Source of the DNA: Candidatus Latescibacterota bacterium
GTDB taxonomy: Bacteria; Latescibacterota; UBA2968; UBA8231
Direction of reading: 5' to 3'
DNA length: 64,000 bases
Assembly: GCA_965248265.1 (NCBI GenBank)
Contig: CBDFJF010000002.1
Location: 1,408,001-1,472,000 of the forward strand
Shown here: piece after piece, positions 38,819 through 44,858 of the stretch
Layout: every line of letters starts with the position of its first letter
Position numbering within the stretch: the stretch's first letter is position 1
Notes under the pieces: generated by a model
Databases searched by the model: none
What the model saw: the letters and a program-made list of their open reading frames with translations, nothing else
Told to the model about the DNA's origin: nothing
Position numbers and translations under genes: made by a program

Positions 38819-39919
38819 TCACCCGGGGTAGAGTTTTTCCACGTTGCCACCCATGAGTCCAGCGCGTTCGTCGTCGGTGAGAAAATCGGTCTGAGTCTCG
38901 TAGAGGATGCGCGACTGACGGTAGGTCGTCACCTTTTCACATCCGGGCATGTCCGACCCCCACATCAGCTTGTGGGCGCCGACGGACTCTGACAGGTCGC
39001 GGATGACCTTTGATGCCGCCGGATGATACGGCGCGAACTCGACGTCGTGCAGCATCTTGTGAATCATCAATTCGATGTGCCAGTTCGGCAGTGAGATCAG
39101 ATCGATGATCGGTGGGGGAATGTCGAAGCGATCCGGGCGGTCGATGTCGATTCTCAGGTTCTCGAGACCATGCGTCAGCACGGATGGAATATGCGGATGG
39201 GCGCGGCCCCACCGGGCGAATTCATCGATCTCGCTCAGGTACTGCTCCAACCGGGGCTGCTTGCGGTTGGCCGCCATCCAATGGACGGGAATGCCAAGGT
39301 CGGCGACCAATGTCCACAGCTGCTCCAGGATGTCGTCGTTGATGCCGAAGGCGAAGTCATTGTGACAGAAACCGCCGGTCGAGAAGTAGAGGCCGGCGAA
39401 GCCAAGGTCTTCGACCTCATGTTCCAGGCGCTCCAACTCACCAGGCTCGCCAGCACGCCACTCATCAACCTGCGCCAGGACGACCAACCGGTCCGGGTAT
39501 TCGCGGACGGCGTCGGCGAGGTAGTCATCGAGGCGACCGTAGAGTCTGTCGTGCTGAATGACCGCCCGATCGATGCCGGCGAAATCCATCTGCGCTATTA
39601 CCTGCTCGGGAGGCGAAGAGAGGTCGGGGTAGGATGGTGGGCCGTGCTGAAAGTAGTAGTCCTCACCTTCGTAAGTCAGCAACACTCTGCCGTACCAACC
39701 GATACGGAAATCGAGGTCCGGCAGTGACGAAATATCGCCGTCACCTTCACCGACCATGATTGGCTCCAGGAGGGGCTCGTTGTCCCGTACCCGGCGGTAG
39801 CCCCCGGGACCGGGGAAGCGGACATGGTACTGCAACTCTTTCATGCAGTTGTCGTCGAATACTTCACCATGGAGCATGGACGGGAAGATGTGCGAATGGG
39901 CATCGAAGATGATGGGCAT
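38819..39919 (-). CDS. Amidohydrolase family 2 protein
   Basis: IFDAHSH, MD.AGIDRAV, LTHG, LMWGSD.P, MGGN. Confidence 0.88.
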   Translation of the reverse strand: MPIIFDAHSHIFPSMLHGEVFDDNCMKELQYHVRFPGPGGYRRVRDNEPLLEPIMVGEGDGDISSLPDLDFRIGWYGRVLLTYEGEDYYFQHGPPSYPDLSSPPEQVIAQMDFAGIDRAVIQHDRLYGRLDDYLADAVREYPDRLVVLAQVDEWRAGEPGELERLEHEVEDLGFAGLYFSTGGFCHNDFAFGINDDILEQLWTLVADLGIPVHWMAANRKQPRLEQYLSEIDEFARWGRAHPHIPSVLTHGLENLRIDIDRPDRFDIPPPIIDLISLPNWHIELMIHKMLHDVEFAPYHPAASKVIRDLSESVGAHKLMWGSDMPGCEKVTTYRQSRILYETQTDFLTDDERAGLMGGNVEKLYPG

Positions 39920-40103
39920 GACATGGGACTCCAAGACGAGACTCTTAACGTTAATACGCGCAGTAAGTTACCAATGTTGCTCCCCAGTGCAATCGGAGCC
40001 CGGGGTAGCTCGTGCGGGCCCAGGAATTGATGGGACGGGGTCACTTTCGGAACTTATACCGGTGAAGGGAAGTTTGAAAATTCAGAGAGCGACTACTGGA
40101 GAA

Positions 40104-41129
40104 ATGATGACGGGGAACGGCAAAACGCGCATCGGGGTGATGGGGTTCGGGGAAATCGGCCGGCAGATCTATCATCTCGCCGCCGAGAGTGACGATATCG
40201 AGGTAGTGGCGATTTCGGATCTGGGGAAACCCGAGATTCTGCATTATCTATTGGACACCGCATCGATTCAGAGCCCCGGAGTAGAACTGGACGGAAATTA
40301 CCTCAGGAACCCGAAATTCAACACCCGGGTGATGCAGACTGACAGGCCAGCGGAGACCCCCTGGGACCTGATCGATGTGGATATGGTCGTCGACACCACA
40401 CACAAGTTCCAATCTCCCGAGGATATGCAGGGCCATCTAGACAACGGCGCGCATCGCGTATTGATCTCCACCGTGCCGGCCGACCATATCGATCGATTGC
40501 TTATTCCCGGTATCAATGAAGAGGGTGCTGACAGTGAGGATCGAATGATTTCCGCTGGGTCGGCGACGACGGTGGCGCTGGCGTTGGTGCTCAAGGTGTT
40601 GAGCGATGAGTTTCCGATCGAAGCGGCCAGTGCGACCTCCGTGCACGCCTATACCAGTGACCAGCCGGTGCAGGACTATGCGGGCAAGGATTTTCGCCGC
40701 AGCCGCTCAGGGGCGGAGAATATCATCCCCAATACCATCGATTCCATCCCCTGGGTAGAGCGCTCGCTGCCCTCGACAAAGGGGAAACTCAGTGGCCATG
40801 CACTTAACGTTCCAGTGCAGAAGGGTTCTCTTCTGGACCTGAGCATCGTTTTCGAGAAGGATGCAGTCGGCGCGGACGAGGTCAACGAGGCGATGCTGAG
40901 TGCACGAACAACCTACGCCGGCAAGATCGATGTGGTGGAGGATCCGATCGTCTCCTCTGACGTCATAGGCAACCGTCATTCGGTACTGTTTGATATGAAG
41001 GGGACGCTCAAGGGCGGGCAGAGAATGGTAAAGACGCTGAGCTGGTACGAAAGCCTCGGGCACGCCTGCCGACTGTTGGACGTAGTCAGAATATACTCGG
41101 GGTTGAACGTTGCGGGAGGTAAGCGATAA
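40104..41129 (+). CDS. GAPDH-like protein lacking the catalytic cysteine (probable pseudoenzyme)
   Basis: Full-length GAPDH fold: GFGEIGR, ISAGSATT (canonical SNASCTT), VHAYT.DQ, RRSR..AENIIP, IVSSD.IG, WY. Confidence 0.85.
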   Translation: MMTGNGKTRIGVMGFGEIGRQIYHLAAESDDIEVVAISDLGKPEILHYLLDTASIQSPGVELDGNYLRNPKFNTRVMQTDRPAETPWDLIDVDMVVDTTHKFQSPEDMQGHLDNGAHRVLISTVPADHIDRLLIPGINEEGADSEDRMISAGSATTVALALVLKVLSDEFPIEAASATSVHAYTSDQPVQDYAGKDFRRSRSGAENIIPNTIDSIPWVERSLPSTKGKLSGHALNVPVQKGSLLDLSIVFEKDAVGADEVNEAMLSARTTYAGKIDVVEDPIVSSDVIGNRHSVLFDMKGTLKGGQRMVKTLSWYESLGHACRLLDVVRIYSGLNVAGGKR

Positions 41130-42130
41130 TGCGTGTGGCCATCAATGGCTTCGGTCGCATCGGACGTTCCGTGTTCCGGATTCTGGACAACCGTGATGAT
41201 GTCGATGTCGTCGCCATCAACGATCTGGGGGATCACGAAGCGCTGCGTTACCTGCTCAACTACGACACCGTCATGGGGACATTCGGTAAAGACCTGCGCT
41301 TGGAGGATGGCTACCTGATTACTCCCGATTCTCGCGTGAAGCTGCTCAAGGAGAGGGAACCGGAGAGCCTGCCCTGGGCGGATTTCGGCGTCGACGTCGC
41401 GATCGAGTCGACGGGAGTCTTCCGCGCCCGCGAGCAAGTGGCCAGGCATCTGGCGGCCGGCGCCACGCGTGCCATTCTCACGGTGCCATCGAAGGATGAG
41501 ATCGACTACACGGTGGTTCTGGGGGTCAACGAGGACGGACTGAAACCGGAACACCAGATCATCTCGAATGCCAGCTGCACCACCAACTGTCTGGCACCCA
41601 TGGCCAAGGTGTTGAACGATTCCTTCGGCATCGTCGAGGGCCTGATCAATACCGTGCACGCCTACACCAACGACCAGCGGCTGGCGGATGTGCCGCACGA
41701 AGACTGGCGTCGCAGTCGCGCCGCCGCCGAGAATATCATTCCAACCTCCACGGGCGCAGCCAAGGCGGTAGGAGAGGTGTTGCCCGAACTCAAGGGCAAG
41801 CTCGACGGCATCGCGGCCAGGGTACCGGTGCCGGACGGGTCAGTGGTCGATCTGTTCGTGGAGCTGTCGCAGCCTGTGACGGTGGAGGATATCCACGCGG
41901 CGGTGCGCGGCGCGTCAGAAACTGACCGCATGCAGGGGATTCTGCAGTACGCCGACAAGCCGGTGGTCTCGAGGGACATCATCGGCAACCGCCATTCATC
42001 CATCTACGACGCCGCATTCACGGATGTTTCGGGGGGGCGGTTCGTCAAGGCGCTCAACTGGTACGACAACGAGTGGGGGTACTCCAATCGGGTATGTGAC
42101 CTGCTGGGGTTGATTCAGAACCGGTTTTAA
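41129..42130 (+). CDS. gap: Type I glyceraldehyde-3-phosphate dehydrogenase
   Basis: AINGFGRIGR, SNASCTTNCLAP, VHAYT, PTSTGAAKA, RVP, WYDNEWGYS; TAATG overlap with upstream gene. Confidence 0.97.
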   Translation: MRVAINGFGRIGRSVFRILDNRDDVDVVAINDLGDHEALRYLLNYDTVMGTFGKDLRLEDGYLITPDSRVKLLKEREPESLPWADFGVDVAIESTGVFRAREQVARHLAAGATRAILTVPSKDEIDYTVVLGVNEDGLKPEHQIISNASCTTNCLAPMAKVLNDSFGIVEGLINTVHAYTNDQRLADVPHEDWRRSRAAAENIIPTSTGAAKAVGEVLPELKGKLDGIAARVPVPDGSVVDLFVELSQPVTVEDIHAAVRGASETDRMQGILQYADKPVVSRDIIGNRHSSIYDAAFTDVSGGRFVKALNWYDNEWGYSNRVCDLLGLIQNRF

Positions 42131-42167
42131 CTCGCCAATGTCCTCGCCACCAGCTCTCCCACAGTAG

Positions 42168-42902
42168 ATGCCCAGCCAATCGCTGCGTGAAGTGATTCCG
42201 GCCGACGCCAAAGACACAGGGCCGACGTTACAGCGGGTAAGGGTTCTTTCAACCTGGCTCTCTTCCAGCTGGGAGCACACGGGGTCCGATCGCGATGGCC
42301 AGTATGCGCCCTGGGATGCGGAAACGTTGCTGTCATGGGGGCCCGCCCAGATCGGCCACGACGGCAAGCGCCCGGTGGCCATGTGTGTGCACTACGCGGC
42401 GGCCTTGGTCAGTGCCGCGCAGGTGATCGGAATACCGGCGAGGTGCGCCGTTCTCACAGGCGGGGTGAACCAGATGAATGGTCACTTTGTCGCGGAGATT
42501 TGGGTGGAGGAACTGGACAAGTGGGTGGTGGTCGATCCGAACACGGACGCGCTCTTCGTCCGCGACGGAGTGCCGATGTCGATGACGCAGATCCAGGAGG
42601 TTGGTGAGGAGATCGGCGGGTTGATCGAATGGGGTCCAGGCTCAACGTTCCAGCGCGGATTCCCTCACATGGTCGAATTCATCCGCGACAATCTGGAGAA
42701 GGGGGTTTGCTTCGGCCATCGCAGCGTCTGGTTCCGTTCCGATCTGCTGGCTCACCCGCAGTTCTCACCGCCGGAGCATGGATCCTTGAGTTACTGCGAG
42801 ACCGGCCTGGTGTGGGAGAAACGGGATCTCGACCGCGGCTTTGGCATGTTCCCCTGCTTCGGGGATGAGGAGTATTTCGACGCGCGACCGGTGAAGGCAT
42901 AG
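42168..42902 (+). CDS. Transglutaminase-like domain protein (possibly 5'-truncated)
   Basis: C-H-D triad: MCVHYA...GIPAR, GHFVAEIW, WVVVDP. Confidence 0.7.
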   Translation: MPSQSLREVIPADAKDTGPTLQRVRVLSTWLSSSWEHTGSDRDGQYAPWDAETLLSWGPAQIGHDGKRPVAMCVHYAAALVSAAQVIGIPARCAVLTGGVNQMNGHFVAEIWVEELDKWVVVDPNTDALFVRDGVPMSMTQIQEVGEEIGGLIEWGPGSTFQRGFPHMVEFIRDNLEKGVCFGHRSVWFRSDLLAHPQFSPPEHGSLSYCETGLVWEKRDLDRGFGMFPCFGDEEYFDARPVKA

Positions 42903-42906
42903 TGAC

Positions 42907-44325
42907 TTACCGCCACTTCATCGCGGCTATCTGCCCCTGGCGGGCGTAGTCCGTCGCCTCGGCCAGGATTCTGGCTGCTTCCTGCGGTGCATGAAAACCC
43001 ATCGAGTTCTCGGCTGCAATAAAGTCGAGTCGCCACTGGGCCTTGCGTTGCAGGCTCAGCGCTGGTGCCAGATCCTCTTGTGAAGCGCCCGACGTCCTGG
43101 CAGATGCGATCGCATCGAGCAGGTCCATGAGGGCGGCGCCGGATCGCTGCAGCAGATCGAAGTTTCGCTGCTGAATTCCGTCCACCCGCTGTTTGATCTC
43201 CTCCTCGGAAAAATGATGGCAGGTCTGGCAAGCCCGGTTGATGTTGAGCAGGGGGCTCCGGACCCAGTGGTCGGAGATTTTGGTGGCGCCATCTCGCATG
43301 TAGGGCATGTGACAGTCCGCGCAGGCCACACCGCTGCGGGCATGGATGCCCTGGCTCCATAATTCGAACTCGGGATGCTGAGCTTTGAGAATCCTGGCTC
43401 CGGTCTCTTTGTGTTCGTAATCGTAAAACTGATCGCCGTCGGGAAACGTGGTATCATCCCAGAACATTTCAGTCTCTTCGACCTTCAAGCCGTTGCCCCA
43501 TGGAAAGGTCAGTTTCATGTTGCTGGCACAGTAGTACTCGACGTGACACTGACCGCACACAAATGAGCGCATTTCAGTCCGCGACGCCTCGATGTTGGGG
43601 TCGTAGGCCTCGGACCGCTGTCCCTGACGCCAGCGTTCGACCGACTGCAGGTGTGGCACCGGGGCGTCTGACTCGGCCAGCATACGGATCCCCTGAATGA
43701 AGCCAGGCCGGGTGACGCGCAGTCGCATATTCTTCGGGTCATGACAGTCAACGCATGACACGGAATGGCCATTGCCCCCATCGTGGAGCATCTGATTCAG
43801 CTCCTGGTACGAATAGGCGTAGGTCTTCTCAAATCCCTTCATGGCGTCACCGTCGCCGAGTTCCCGGTAGAGGGGCATGATGGAAGCGTGGCAATGCAGA
43901 CACGAACCAGACTGAGGCTTCGACTGGCGTTCGGTGTTTTCCTGGTCATCGAGCATGTAGGCATGGCCGCGTCGATCGCGGTAATCGATGGAGAACGCGT
44001 AGCCGAGGAACATCCGCTTCAACCAGGGGTCACGCTCAATCTTCTGTTCGGGAAGGGCCTCACTGCCACCGTGTCCACCAAAGCGCGTGCGGGTGGCGAG
44101 GGCAGTGCGTTTGTATGAATCGTATTGTCGCGGCCAGTTCGCCGCCCAAGTTTCCGGATCGGTGGTATCCTCGGTTACTTCGACGAGGCGAACGTAGGCG
44201 TTCCTGGCTTCGGATTTGCGCTCGATGATGTTGACGAGCAGTCCCGCAACCAGGGCGCTGACGATGGCTACGGTGGTGAGAATCAATACGAAGTTCAGCC
44301 TGCCGCGCTTTTCAGTCTCGCTCAT
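42907..44325 (-). CDS. nrfA: Ammonia-forming cytochrome c nitrite reductase catalytic subunit (CXXCH-type heme 1)
   Basis: RRGHAY, five CXXCH ([32 protein letters not shown]), [18 protein letters not shown]. Confidence 0.95.
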
Positions 44326-44858
44326 TCCATCGCTCCATTCAGGTACACGCGTTGCGGACCACCCAGACCCACGGCCTCTCCGTGCCCGACGGACCGATGG
44401 CAGTGGATGCACTTCACGACATCGTCGTCCGTGGCGTTGAGCACCACTTCATGGACGAGGTCCTGGTGGCATTCGATACAGTTTTGTTGGAGGATCCGGC
44501 TATTCTTCTCGTTGATGAGAATCGGTTCGTGAAAATCCTGCAGAGTAAAGGCCTTCGAGTGGTTGTACCCGTTCTCGGCCTTGGCGATGTATTTACCAAT
44601 GAAATCGTGGGGCAGATGGCAGTCTATGCAGGCGGCAGCCGTATGATGGCTGGATTTCTGCCAGGAGTCGAACTGGGGTTTCATGATATGGCAGTTCATG
44701 CATGCGGCGGGGTCCTTGCTGAAATAGGACAGGCCTTCCGCGTAACGAGCAGTAAAGCCTCCCACGCCAATGAGAACACCAAGCGAACAGGCCAGTACGG
44801 CTGTGCCTGCGCCCAGGCCCAGGAGGCGCTTCTGATCCCACCGCTTGAGCGAATTCAC
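44322..44858 (-). CDS. nrfH: Tetraheme quinol dehydrogenase, small subunit of nitrite reductase
   Basis: TM anchor, DP.AC.NCHIM, W.KSSH, CIDCHLP, KAENG, CIECH, CIHCH..VGH. Confidence 0.93.

Follow-up and report, generated by a model that had tools for sequence, protein, structure and literature searches.

A candidate heteromeric bacterial GAPDH with a predicted non-catalytic subunit, encoded by two overlapping genes

Introduction

Glyceraldehyde-3-phosphate dehydrogenase (GAPDH) ranks among the enzymes studied in most depth and is regarded, in bacteria, as a homotetramer. A GAPDH made of two paralogous subunits exists in the chloroplasts of plants, where both subunits of the A2B2 enzyme (GapA/GapB) take part in catalysis, GapB being set apart chiefly by a C-terminal extension with a regulatory role. 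Gammaproteobacteria have a divergent GAPDH paralog, Epd (also called GapB), an erythrose-4-phosphate (E4P) dehydrogenase that keeps the catalytic cysteine. In the flagellar TbGAPDHL of trypanosomatids the catalytic cysteine is replaced by proline, and passages of PMC4106842 describe this paralog as predicted inactive, with its cofactor-site region possibly kept. Dead paralogs can act by heteromerizing with an active enzyme, as excerpts of PMC6221367 report for prozyme pseudoenzymes such as the trypanosomatid S-adenosylmethionine decarboxylase (AdoMetDC) prozyme. In a search of the full-text literature, with subscription journals and supplementary files outside its reach, chloroplast A2B2 GAPDH was the only heteromeric precedent and TbGAPDHL the only inactive paralog, and neither a bacterial GAPDH that has a dead paralog as a dedicated subunit nor any bacterial heteromeric GAPDH was found described. 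Here, we describe a locus in a 64,000-nucleotide stretch of a Candidatus Latescibacterota genome (assembly GCA_965248265.1, contig CBDFJF010000002.1, positions 1,408,001–1,472,000; the window), in which a gene for a GAPDH-fold paralog lacking the catalytic cysteine (gapX, protein X) runs directly into a gene for a canonical type I GAPDH (gapY, protein Y).

The locus resembles each of these systems in part. Compared with the homotetrameric type I enzymes (GapA; TIGR01534; structures 1gd1/3cmc, 1hdg and 7c5j), X is alike in fold and Y agrees on every point tested, but X lacks Cys149, Arg231, Thr208/Gly209 and Glu314 and scores below the family cut-off, and the enzyme here appears to need two different genes. 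Like the chloroplast enzyme it would combine two paralogous subunits; unlike it, one subunit is predicted to be dead, the regulatory extension is absent and the genes lie in a bacterial operon. Epd occurs in some of the same bacterial groups, but X is not a member of that family by score. For TbGAPDHL, an ancestor-like active form survives in Bodo saltans, comparable to the X members that keep the cysteine; in contrast to X, the passages of PMC4106842 that we draw on present TbGAPDHL as a eukaryotic, poorly conserved component of the paraflagellar rod, read as a relic, with no dedicated active GAPDH partner. The nearest mechanistic analogue of the role proposed here for X would be the prozyme, although, in the excerpts of PMC6221367, it belongs to another enzyme family and another domain of life.

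Results

Both proteins match the Pfam domains Gp_dh_N and Gp_dh_C, and pairwise alignment gives 37% identity over 326 residues. Against the NCBIfam model of type I GAPDH (TIGR01534, EC 1.2.1.12; cut-off 367.2 bits) Y scores 418.1 bits and X 242.3 bits. X also stays below the E4P dehydrogenase models TIGR01532 and NF010058 (173 bits where 530.55 is required, and 176.6 where 539 is), and far under the cut-offs of the ArsJ-associated GAPDH model and of other NCBIfam models. All 15 key residues of Y are canonical, and its cysteine motif SNASCTT reads SAGSATT in X. The original prediction, made from the letters of the window, had described two GAPDH-fold genes with a TAATG junction, an alanine codon GCG in the first where the second has TGC for the catalytic cysteine, and the further replacements of GFGRIG by GFGEIG, PTSTGAA by PNTIDSI at the Pi site, RVP by NVP and WYDNE by WYES; coordinates, codons and motifs are all as it gave them, the Pi-site stretch reading NIIPTSTGA in Y and NIIPNTIDS in X. 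Contigs from two runs on one sample are identical to the window over positions 39950–41680 and 41651–42150, and a contig from another study, 94.8% identical, spans 40384–41680 with the junction and has no difference listed at 40563–40565. Because these independent contigs agree at the alanine codon, it is not a read error, as had been argued from the codon itself.

For the roles of individual residues in the phosphate and NAD sites we presumed correspondence with the Geobacillus and Escherichia coli enzymes. These roles are partly backed by passages of the review PMC12041015 and of PMC4106842, the latter also reporting, in the part we draw on, that a Cys-to-Ala change abolishes activity in a bacterial enzyme. 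Among the best 120 homologues of X (57–82% identical) none has the cysteine motif and 108 carry a cysteine-less S..S.TT motif, mostly SAGSATT, the remaining 12 lying outside this search pattern. Across 129 aligned family members the cysteine column holds Ala in 85%, Pro in 8% and Gly in 4%. Other columns have changed as well: the positions of Arg231 and Thr206 are Asn in 100% of the 129 members, Thr208 has become His or Asn (Ile in the window) and Gly209 Glu or Asp (Asp in the window), 98% have a deletion of Glu314, and in 99% His takes the place of Tyr317. Around the cofactor, Arg10 is Gln, His or Leu in the family and Glu in the window's X, Arg77 is Asp in 88% of members, and the Asn313 position is Asn, Ser or Thr (Ser in the window's X); the changes at two NAD-contact positions, R10 to E in the window and R77 to D in most of the family, reverse the charge. 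His176 is kept in every one of the 129 members (within VHAYT in the window's X), GxGxxG and Asp32 are likewise invariant, and X retains the phosphate-site residues R195 and T179. The family also has invariants of its own, namely Asn at 231, Asn at 206, Trp217 and His320 (X numbering), and 23 columns are invariant among 106 X sequences. In the S-loop, X has Tyr-Ala-Gly where canonical enzymes have x-Pro-His. With no nucleophilic cysteine and with both phosphate sites degraded, X is predicted to be unable to carry out the GAPDH reaction.

In a test that the original prediction had called for, the cysteine-less homologues lie beside a gap gene at every assessable locus. In public species genomes, a canonical GAPDH gene stands directly 3' of the X relative with overlapping stop and start codons in 9 of 9 loci, carried by Cellvibrionales/Pseudomonadales metagenome-assembled genomes (MAGs), a Spongiibacteraceae MAG, a Cellvibrionaceae MAG, a Pseudomonadota MAG and Pseudomaricurvus alkylphenolicus. 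In the window's phylum, 4 of 168 species genomes, all from one family, carry X, and all four have it directly upstream of Y, with an overlap of 1 nt (the window) or 4 nt. The gammaproteobacterial family of Pseudomaricurvus has X in 7 of 151 sampled genomes, each time with a GAPDH gene directly downstream. A wider scan of metagenome contigs with the sister-clade alignment gave 80 loci: 58 have both genes in full, the paralog upstream and a canonical GAPDH downstream, mostly −4, −1 or 0 to +4 nt apart, 8 have X and a Y cut by the contig end, 5 end at X, 2 are Y-clade genes at contig starts, and 7 are ordinary GAPDHs outside the Y clade and without X. No exception to the order of X upstream of Y was seen among the assessable loci (about 80). 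One Pseudomonadales MAG (JBBKXJ01; loci L004 and L006) has two distinct X-Y pairs, in which X shares 72% and 65% identity, respectively, with that of the window. Beyond X, Y and an antisense shadow open reading frame, every gene cluster is limited to at most 3 of 10 loci in one set and at most 9 of 90 in the other, so that no neighbour is conserved; we make no claim of a link to pgk, tpi or any other pathway.

The partner is itself distinctive. Of the 70 Y proteins, 67 have the full canonical 15-residue signature NRDCHTRRTTGRNEY; the remaining three are incomplete or deviate at a single site. With the window's Y as query against the 151 genomes of the Pseudomaricurvus family, matches of 74–82% identity were found in exactly the seven carriers of X, and the next-best GAPDH was at most 56% identical. 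Since Y-type matches occur only in X-bearing genomes and nothing else exceeds 56%, these comparisons identify Y as a dedicated partner clade and not a housekeeping gap. The partner is more than the active GAPDH of the earlier description, in that its clade was seen solely together with X. A type I GAPDH scoring above the cut-off is present in 69 of the 76 genomes of the window's family, and in the four X-bearing genomes Y is the sole such protein, so the X-Y module seems to stand in for ordinary gapA. The GAPDH family of the window's genome consists of X, Y and one 480-aa long-form GAPDH; the gene of the latter (L002 616–2058, G000:C2), with SAASCTT and WYDNE, lies about 405 kb upstream of the window. 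The five carrier genomes that were examined have 5–7 Gp_dh_C genes each.

Phylogeny gives the same pairing at greater depth. In a tree of library representatives the window's clade is nested in a larger cysteine-less clade. All X proteins, including all 70 full-length ones, fall together in a clade of 99 leaves (support 0.935) with no Arg231-bearing member, and all Y proteins, again including all 70, in a clade of 76 leaves (support 0.974). The Y tree mirrors the X tree subclade by subclade; pairwise distances in X and Y are correlated with a Mantel r of 0.894, reached by 0 of 999 permutations, which shows co-inheritance and, because related sequences are not independent, is no proof of physical co-evolution. 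A recent tandem duplication is ruled out by the 37% identity of X and Y and by their placement in different deep clades.

Within the X clade the losses appear graded. Arg231 is absent from 70 of 70 X proteins (Asn, or Thr in one clade), Glu314 is replaced or deleted in all 70, and Asn6 is replaced with one exception. The cysteine column of the 99 leaves holds S44, N23, A16, C8, P3, G2, V2 and T1, with at least 17 changes by parsimony, and such a variable residue argues against a new fixed chemistry at this site. Members that keep the cysteine fall mostly in one subclade of the midpoint-rooted tree, the rooting of which is unreliable. The best 120 matches to a profile of diverse X sequences are X proteins that keep the cysteine; every one of them has WYDNGWG or a close variant of it, and in 115 the Arg231 position is occupied by Asn. 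Some bear the name Candidatus Eisenbacteria or Polarisedimenticolaceae, and the annotation of each named protein is type I GAPDH or aldehyde dehydrogenase. It appears that Arg231 and Glu314 were lost first (in all X), then the cysteine, repeatedly, and then Arg10, Arg77 and Asn313 in the window's clade, which looks, from these alignments, like a progressive loss of catalysis and ligand binding. The original prediction had recognized the system but understated its breadth: the X family is old, spans several phyla, has lost the cysteine repeatedly and retains it in few members. In one X subclade (L109, L112, L113, L119, L124, L125, L128 and L131) the cysteine is Asn and His176 is Lys, and the partner of these proteins is still a canonical Y.

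The window's X and Y nest with gammaproteobacterial copies, and the copies from the window's own family stand elsewhere, in both trees. This matching placement suggests that the pair was transferred as a unit, a reading drawn from the trees; the GC content of the pair (0.56–0.62) matches its surroundings, and base composition gives no hint of a transfer.

X is under purifying selection, a point that the original prediction had proposed to check by the ratio (omega) of nonsynonymous (dN) to synonymous (dS) substitution rates. Pairwise Nei-Gojobori estimates were made for 66 pairs; dS is saturated (above 1) in all of them, so the omega values are rough, and in the closest pair they are 0.065 for X and 0.033 for Y. 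The dN of X is 1.4–2.4 times that of Y in all 66 pairs. X reads through without interruption at about 80 loci, even where its subclades share as little as about 30% identity.

An AF2 monomer model of X, built from a 106-sequence alignment, has a predicted local distance difference test (pLDDT) score of 89.9, falling below 50 at the S-loop residues 187–193 and 196–204, which are disordered in the model. Foldseek places it at template modelling (TM) scores of 0.85–0.90 to solved GAPDHs and E4P dehydrogenases, and the structural alignments returned no solved structure nearer to X than ordinary GAPDHs, which share 30–38% identity with it. Modelled with Y, a check also proposed at the outset, X was set on its partner with a complex score of 0.75 (runs of 0.79, 0.75 and 0.75), against 0.00 for the best of three controls; partner pLDDT was 90 and contacts agreed by at least 97% between runs. 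In calibration, 58 of 80 solved complexes attained this mark, as did 2 of 110 mismatched pairs. In the model X contacts Y at Y residues 170–176, 193–205, 223–245 and 278–309, which make up the canonical GAPDH dimer interface. The passing score may stem from likeness to solved GAPDH homotetramers. The segment that had been noted as closely conserved between the two proteins is the S-loop region, and it is indeed closely shared. As far as computation reaches, adjacency, selection and the complex model all support the original interpretation of X as a non-catalytic subunit.

The features of the pair are listed in Table 1. A scan for promoters and terminators was uninformative (one promoter-like site against 1.1 expected, and no terminator-like sites). 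The pair is flanked by a divergent gene for an Amidohydro_2 protein (38819–39934, minus strand) and by a gene for a transglutaminase-core protein (42168–42902, plus strand), neither of which is conserved beside the pair elsewhere. Further downstream on the opposite strand (42907–44858) lie genes for an NrfA-like cytochrome c552 nitrite reductase of 501 aa and for an NrfH-like tetrahaem partner of the NapC/NirT type, 178 aa long.

Table 1 Features of the gapX-gapY locus, in positions of the window
Feature	Position	Strand	Remarks
GGAG	40098–40101	+	Possible gapX ribosome-binding site, read off the sequence
gapX	40104–41129	+	GAPDH-fold paralog without catalytic Cys, 341 aa; range includes the stop codon
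gapX, coding part	40104–41126		
gapX, alternative start	40107		In-frame ATG, equally possible
gapX codon GCG	40563–40565	+	Ala154 at the catalytic Cys149 position; aligns with gapY TGC
gapX codon CAC	40644–40646	+	His181, equivalent of catalytic His176, kept
gapX S-loop region	40647–40730	+	Residues 182–209, AYTSDQPVQDYAGKDFRRSRSGAENIIP; most conserved stretch of the X family
gapX codon AAC	40806–40808	+	Asn235 where the substrate-phosphate-binding Arg231 is expected; X-family hallmark
GGGAGG	41114–41119	+	Shine-Dalgarno-like, for gapY; within the gapX 3' end, 9 nt before the ATG
gapX stop TAA	41127–41129		
TAATG	41127–41131	+	gapX stop and gapY start, one-base overlap
gapY	41129–42130	+	Canonical type I GAPDH, 333 aa; range includes the stop codon
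gapY codon TGC	41576–41578	+	Catalytic Cys150

Several longer proteins turned up in the same searches. Two proteins of 673 and 677 aa with two GAPDH units were rejected as fusions: an out-of-frame stretch replaces the C-terminus of X, and they are X-Y read-throughs. The public gene calls P0273, P0393, P0394 and P0128 join X and Y through frameshifted or collapsed stretches and could be mistaken for natural fusions. Sister-clade X proteins of 420 aa (L075 3743–5005, L076 3749–5011; P0130) have an N-terminal extension of about 80 residues without GAPDH similarity, possibly a start-codon artefact. Among very long proteins with GAPDH units, P0125 (2089 aa) has four matched stretches and four cysteine motifs, P0139 (509 aa) has two GAPDH units, both with the cysteine, and P0253 (1455 aa) has two matched stretches. 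Many GAPDH-PGK fusions (PF00162 and PF02800) were found in P0397–P0460, one named Thermoplasmatota archaeon and one Reticulomyxa.

Discussion

We consider it probable that X is a non-catalytic subunit of a heteromeric GAPDH. On this reading gapX and gapY would be a self-contained module of two translationally coupled genes, with Y as the catalytic subunit. X, keeping the fold, the S-loop and the subunit interface, would assemble with Y into a mixed tetramer, probably X2Y2, and would modulate Y. How it might do so is more speculative: the altered S-loop of X could line the cofactor pocket of Y across a two-fold axis and thereby change NAD/NADP affinity, specificity or cooperativity. In mutagenesis work on coenzyme specificity, Pro188 of the neighbouring subunit's S-loop reportedly helps to exclude NADP; together with Tyr-Ala-Gly in X in place of the canonical x-Pro-His, this makes a change in the cofactor use or cooperativity of Y one testable idea. 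X has several traits of a prozyme, being a paralog of an active enzyme that has lost catalytic residues, is under purifying selection, and strictly co-occurs and is co-inherited with that enzyme. On a broader proposal our judgement is evenly balanced, namely that GapXY is an old, multi-phylum, two-subunit glycolytic GAPDH in which X lost Arg231 first and then the cysteine repeatedly, to become a dedicated regulatory subunit, and which moves between phyla as a unit and can replace gapA. It would have been overlooked because both genes are annotated 'type I GAPDH'. The nearest clusters in the ESM Atlas carry generic GAPDH names, mostly from Pseudomonadota, and are uninformative here.

Several points weigh against a heteromeric enzyme with a silent subunit or limit the evidence for it. 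His176, Ser148, Thr150/151, GxGxxG and Asp32 are kept at 95–100% in X, and a few X members retain both the cysteine and a canonical S-loop, so residual or different ligand binding or catalysis by X is conceivable from its sequence. The complex model cannot separate X-Y from X-X or Y-Y, since X and Y agree at the majority of interface residues, and the two proteins could thus also form separate homotetramers. In favour of a subunit role, the predicted interface of X has an entropy of 0.66 bits against 1.22 bits elsewhere in the catalytic domain (Mann-Whitney p = 2e-4), and the S-loop a mean of 0.36 bits in X against 1.49 bits in canonical GAPDHs, but this contrast is only indicative because the interface set includes active-site neighbours and the canonical comparison set is more divergent. 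Both the adjacency counts and the Mantel correlation are drawn from related sequences and overstate independence. Among 68 long proteins from a search for longer homologues, many of which also have a PGK domain, no genuine X-Y fusion protein was found. As to the replacement of gapA, two of the X-bearing genomes are incomplete (81% for G003, 84% for G009), which leaves the lack of another gapA there uncertain.

The conserved active-site residues are also what speaks for the first rival explanation, which we think unlikely but worth weighing: X would be a neofunctionalized NAD(P)-dependent enzyme or ligand binder with a substrate of its own, using His176 without the cysteine nucleophile and merely co-expressed with Y for the same step or pathway. 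The family-specific invariants Asn231, Asn206, Trp217 and His320 would fit a new function, as would basal X members that have Cys, His and a canonical S-loop but no Arg231, and according to passages of PMC12041015 some clades of the GapDH superfamily without the cysteine stay active. A retuned active site is, however, hard to reconcile with eight different residues at the cysteine position and at least 17 changes there, with the degradation of both anion sites, or with the replacement of R10, R77 and N313 in the window's clade. The best conserved regions are interface elements and not a new pocket, no third conserved gene indicates another pathway, and Y is a dedicated clade never seen without X.

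This last point also bears on the idea that X works outside the tetramer of Y, either as a homotetrameric NAD(H) decoy or buffer or as a moonlighting regulator that binds RNA or another enzyme. The retained Rossmann fingerprint and Asp32 agree with such a role, the interface residues held in common with Y would permit X4 homotetramers, and passages of PMC4106842 offer a parallel in the inactive GAPDH-like proteins of trypanosomatids, whose cofactor site is possibly kept. But a free-standing protein would not be expected to lie strictly beside the genes of one dedicated GAPDH clade, to be coupled to them in translation and to diverge along with them, and the charge reversals at NAD contacts (Glu for R10 in the window's X, Asp for R77 in 88% of family members) argue against an NAD(H) binder; we judge this explanation improbable, somewhat more so than a new enzymatic activity. 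That X is a decaying duplicate, a pseudogene in the making, or an assembly artefact is already contradicted and hardly credible. Its evolution at 1.4–2.4 times the rate of Y and its sporadic phyletic spread (4 of 168 and 7 of 151 genomes) might suggest decay, but some 80 deeply diverged loci have X in an unbroken frame, its omega lies far under 1 and 23 columns are invariant in 106 sequences, and independent contigs agree on the assembly.

If X is indeed a non-catalytic subunit partnered with Y, the pair would be a new quaternary and regulatory solution in central carbon metabolism. It would also be a rare bacterial pseudoenzyme subunit whose evolution can be traced stepwise, with cysteine-keeping members beside lineages that have Ser, Asn, Ala, Pro or Gly. 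The finding would correct a systematic annotation error, given that X is named 'type I GAPDH' or 'aldehyde dehydrogenase' in public records, a misnaming that inflates GAPDH copy counts in metabolic reconstructions. Cultured carriers exist, namely Pseudomaricurvus alkylphenolicus KCTC 32386, and a Marinobacter alexandrii record is among the homologues, making the proposed two-subunit GAPDH directly testable.

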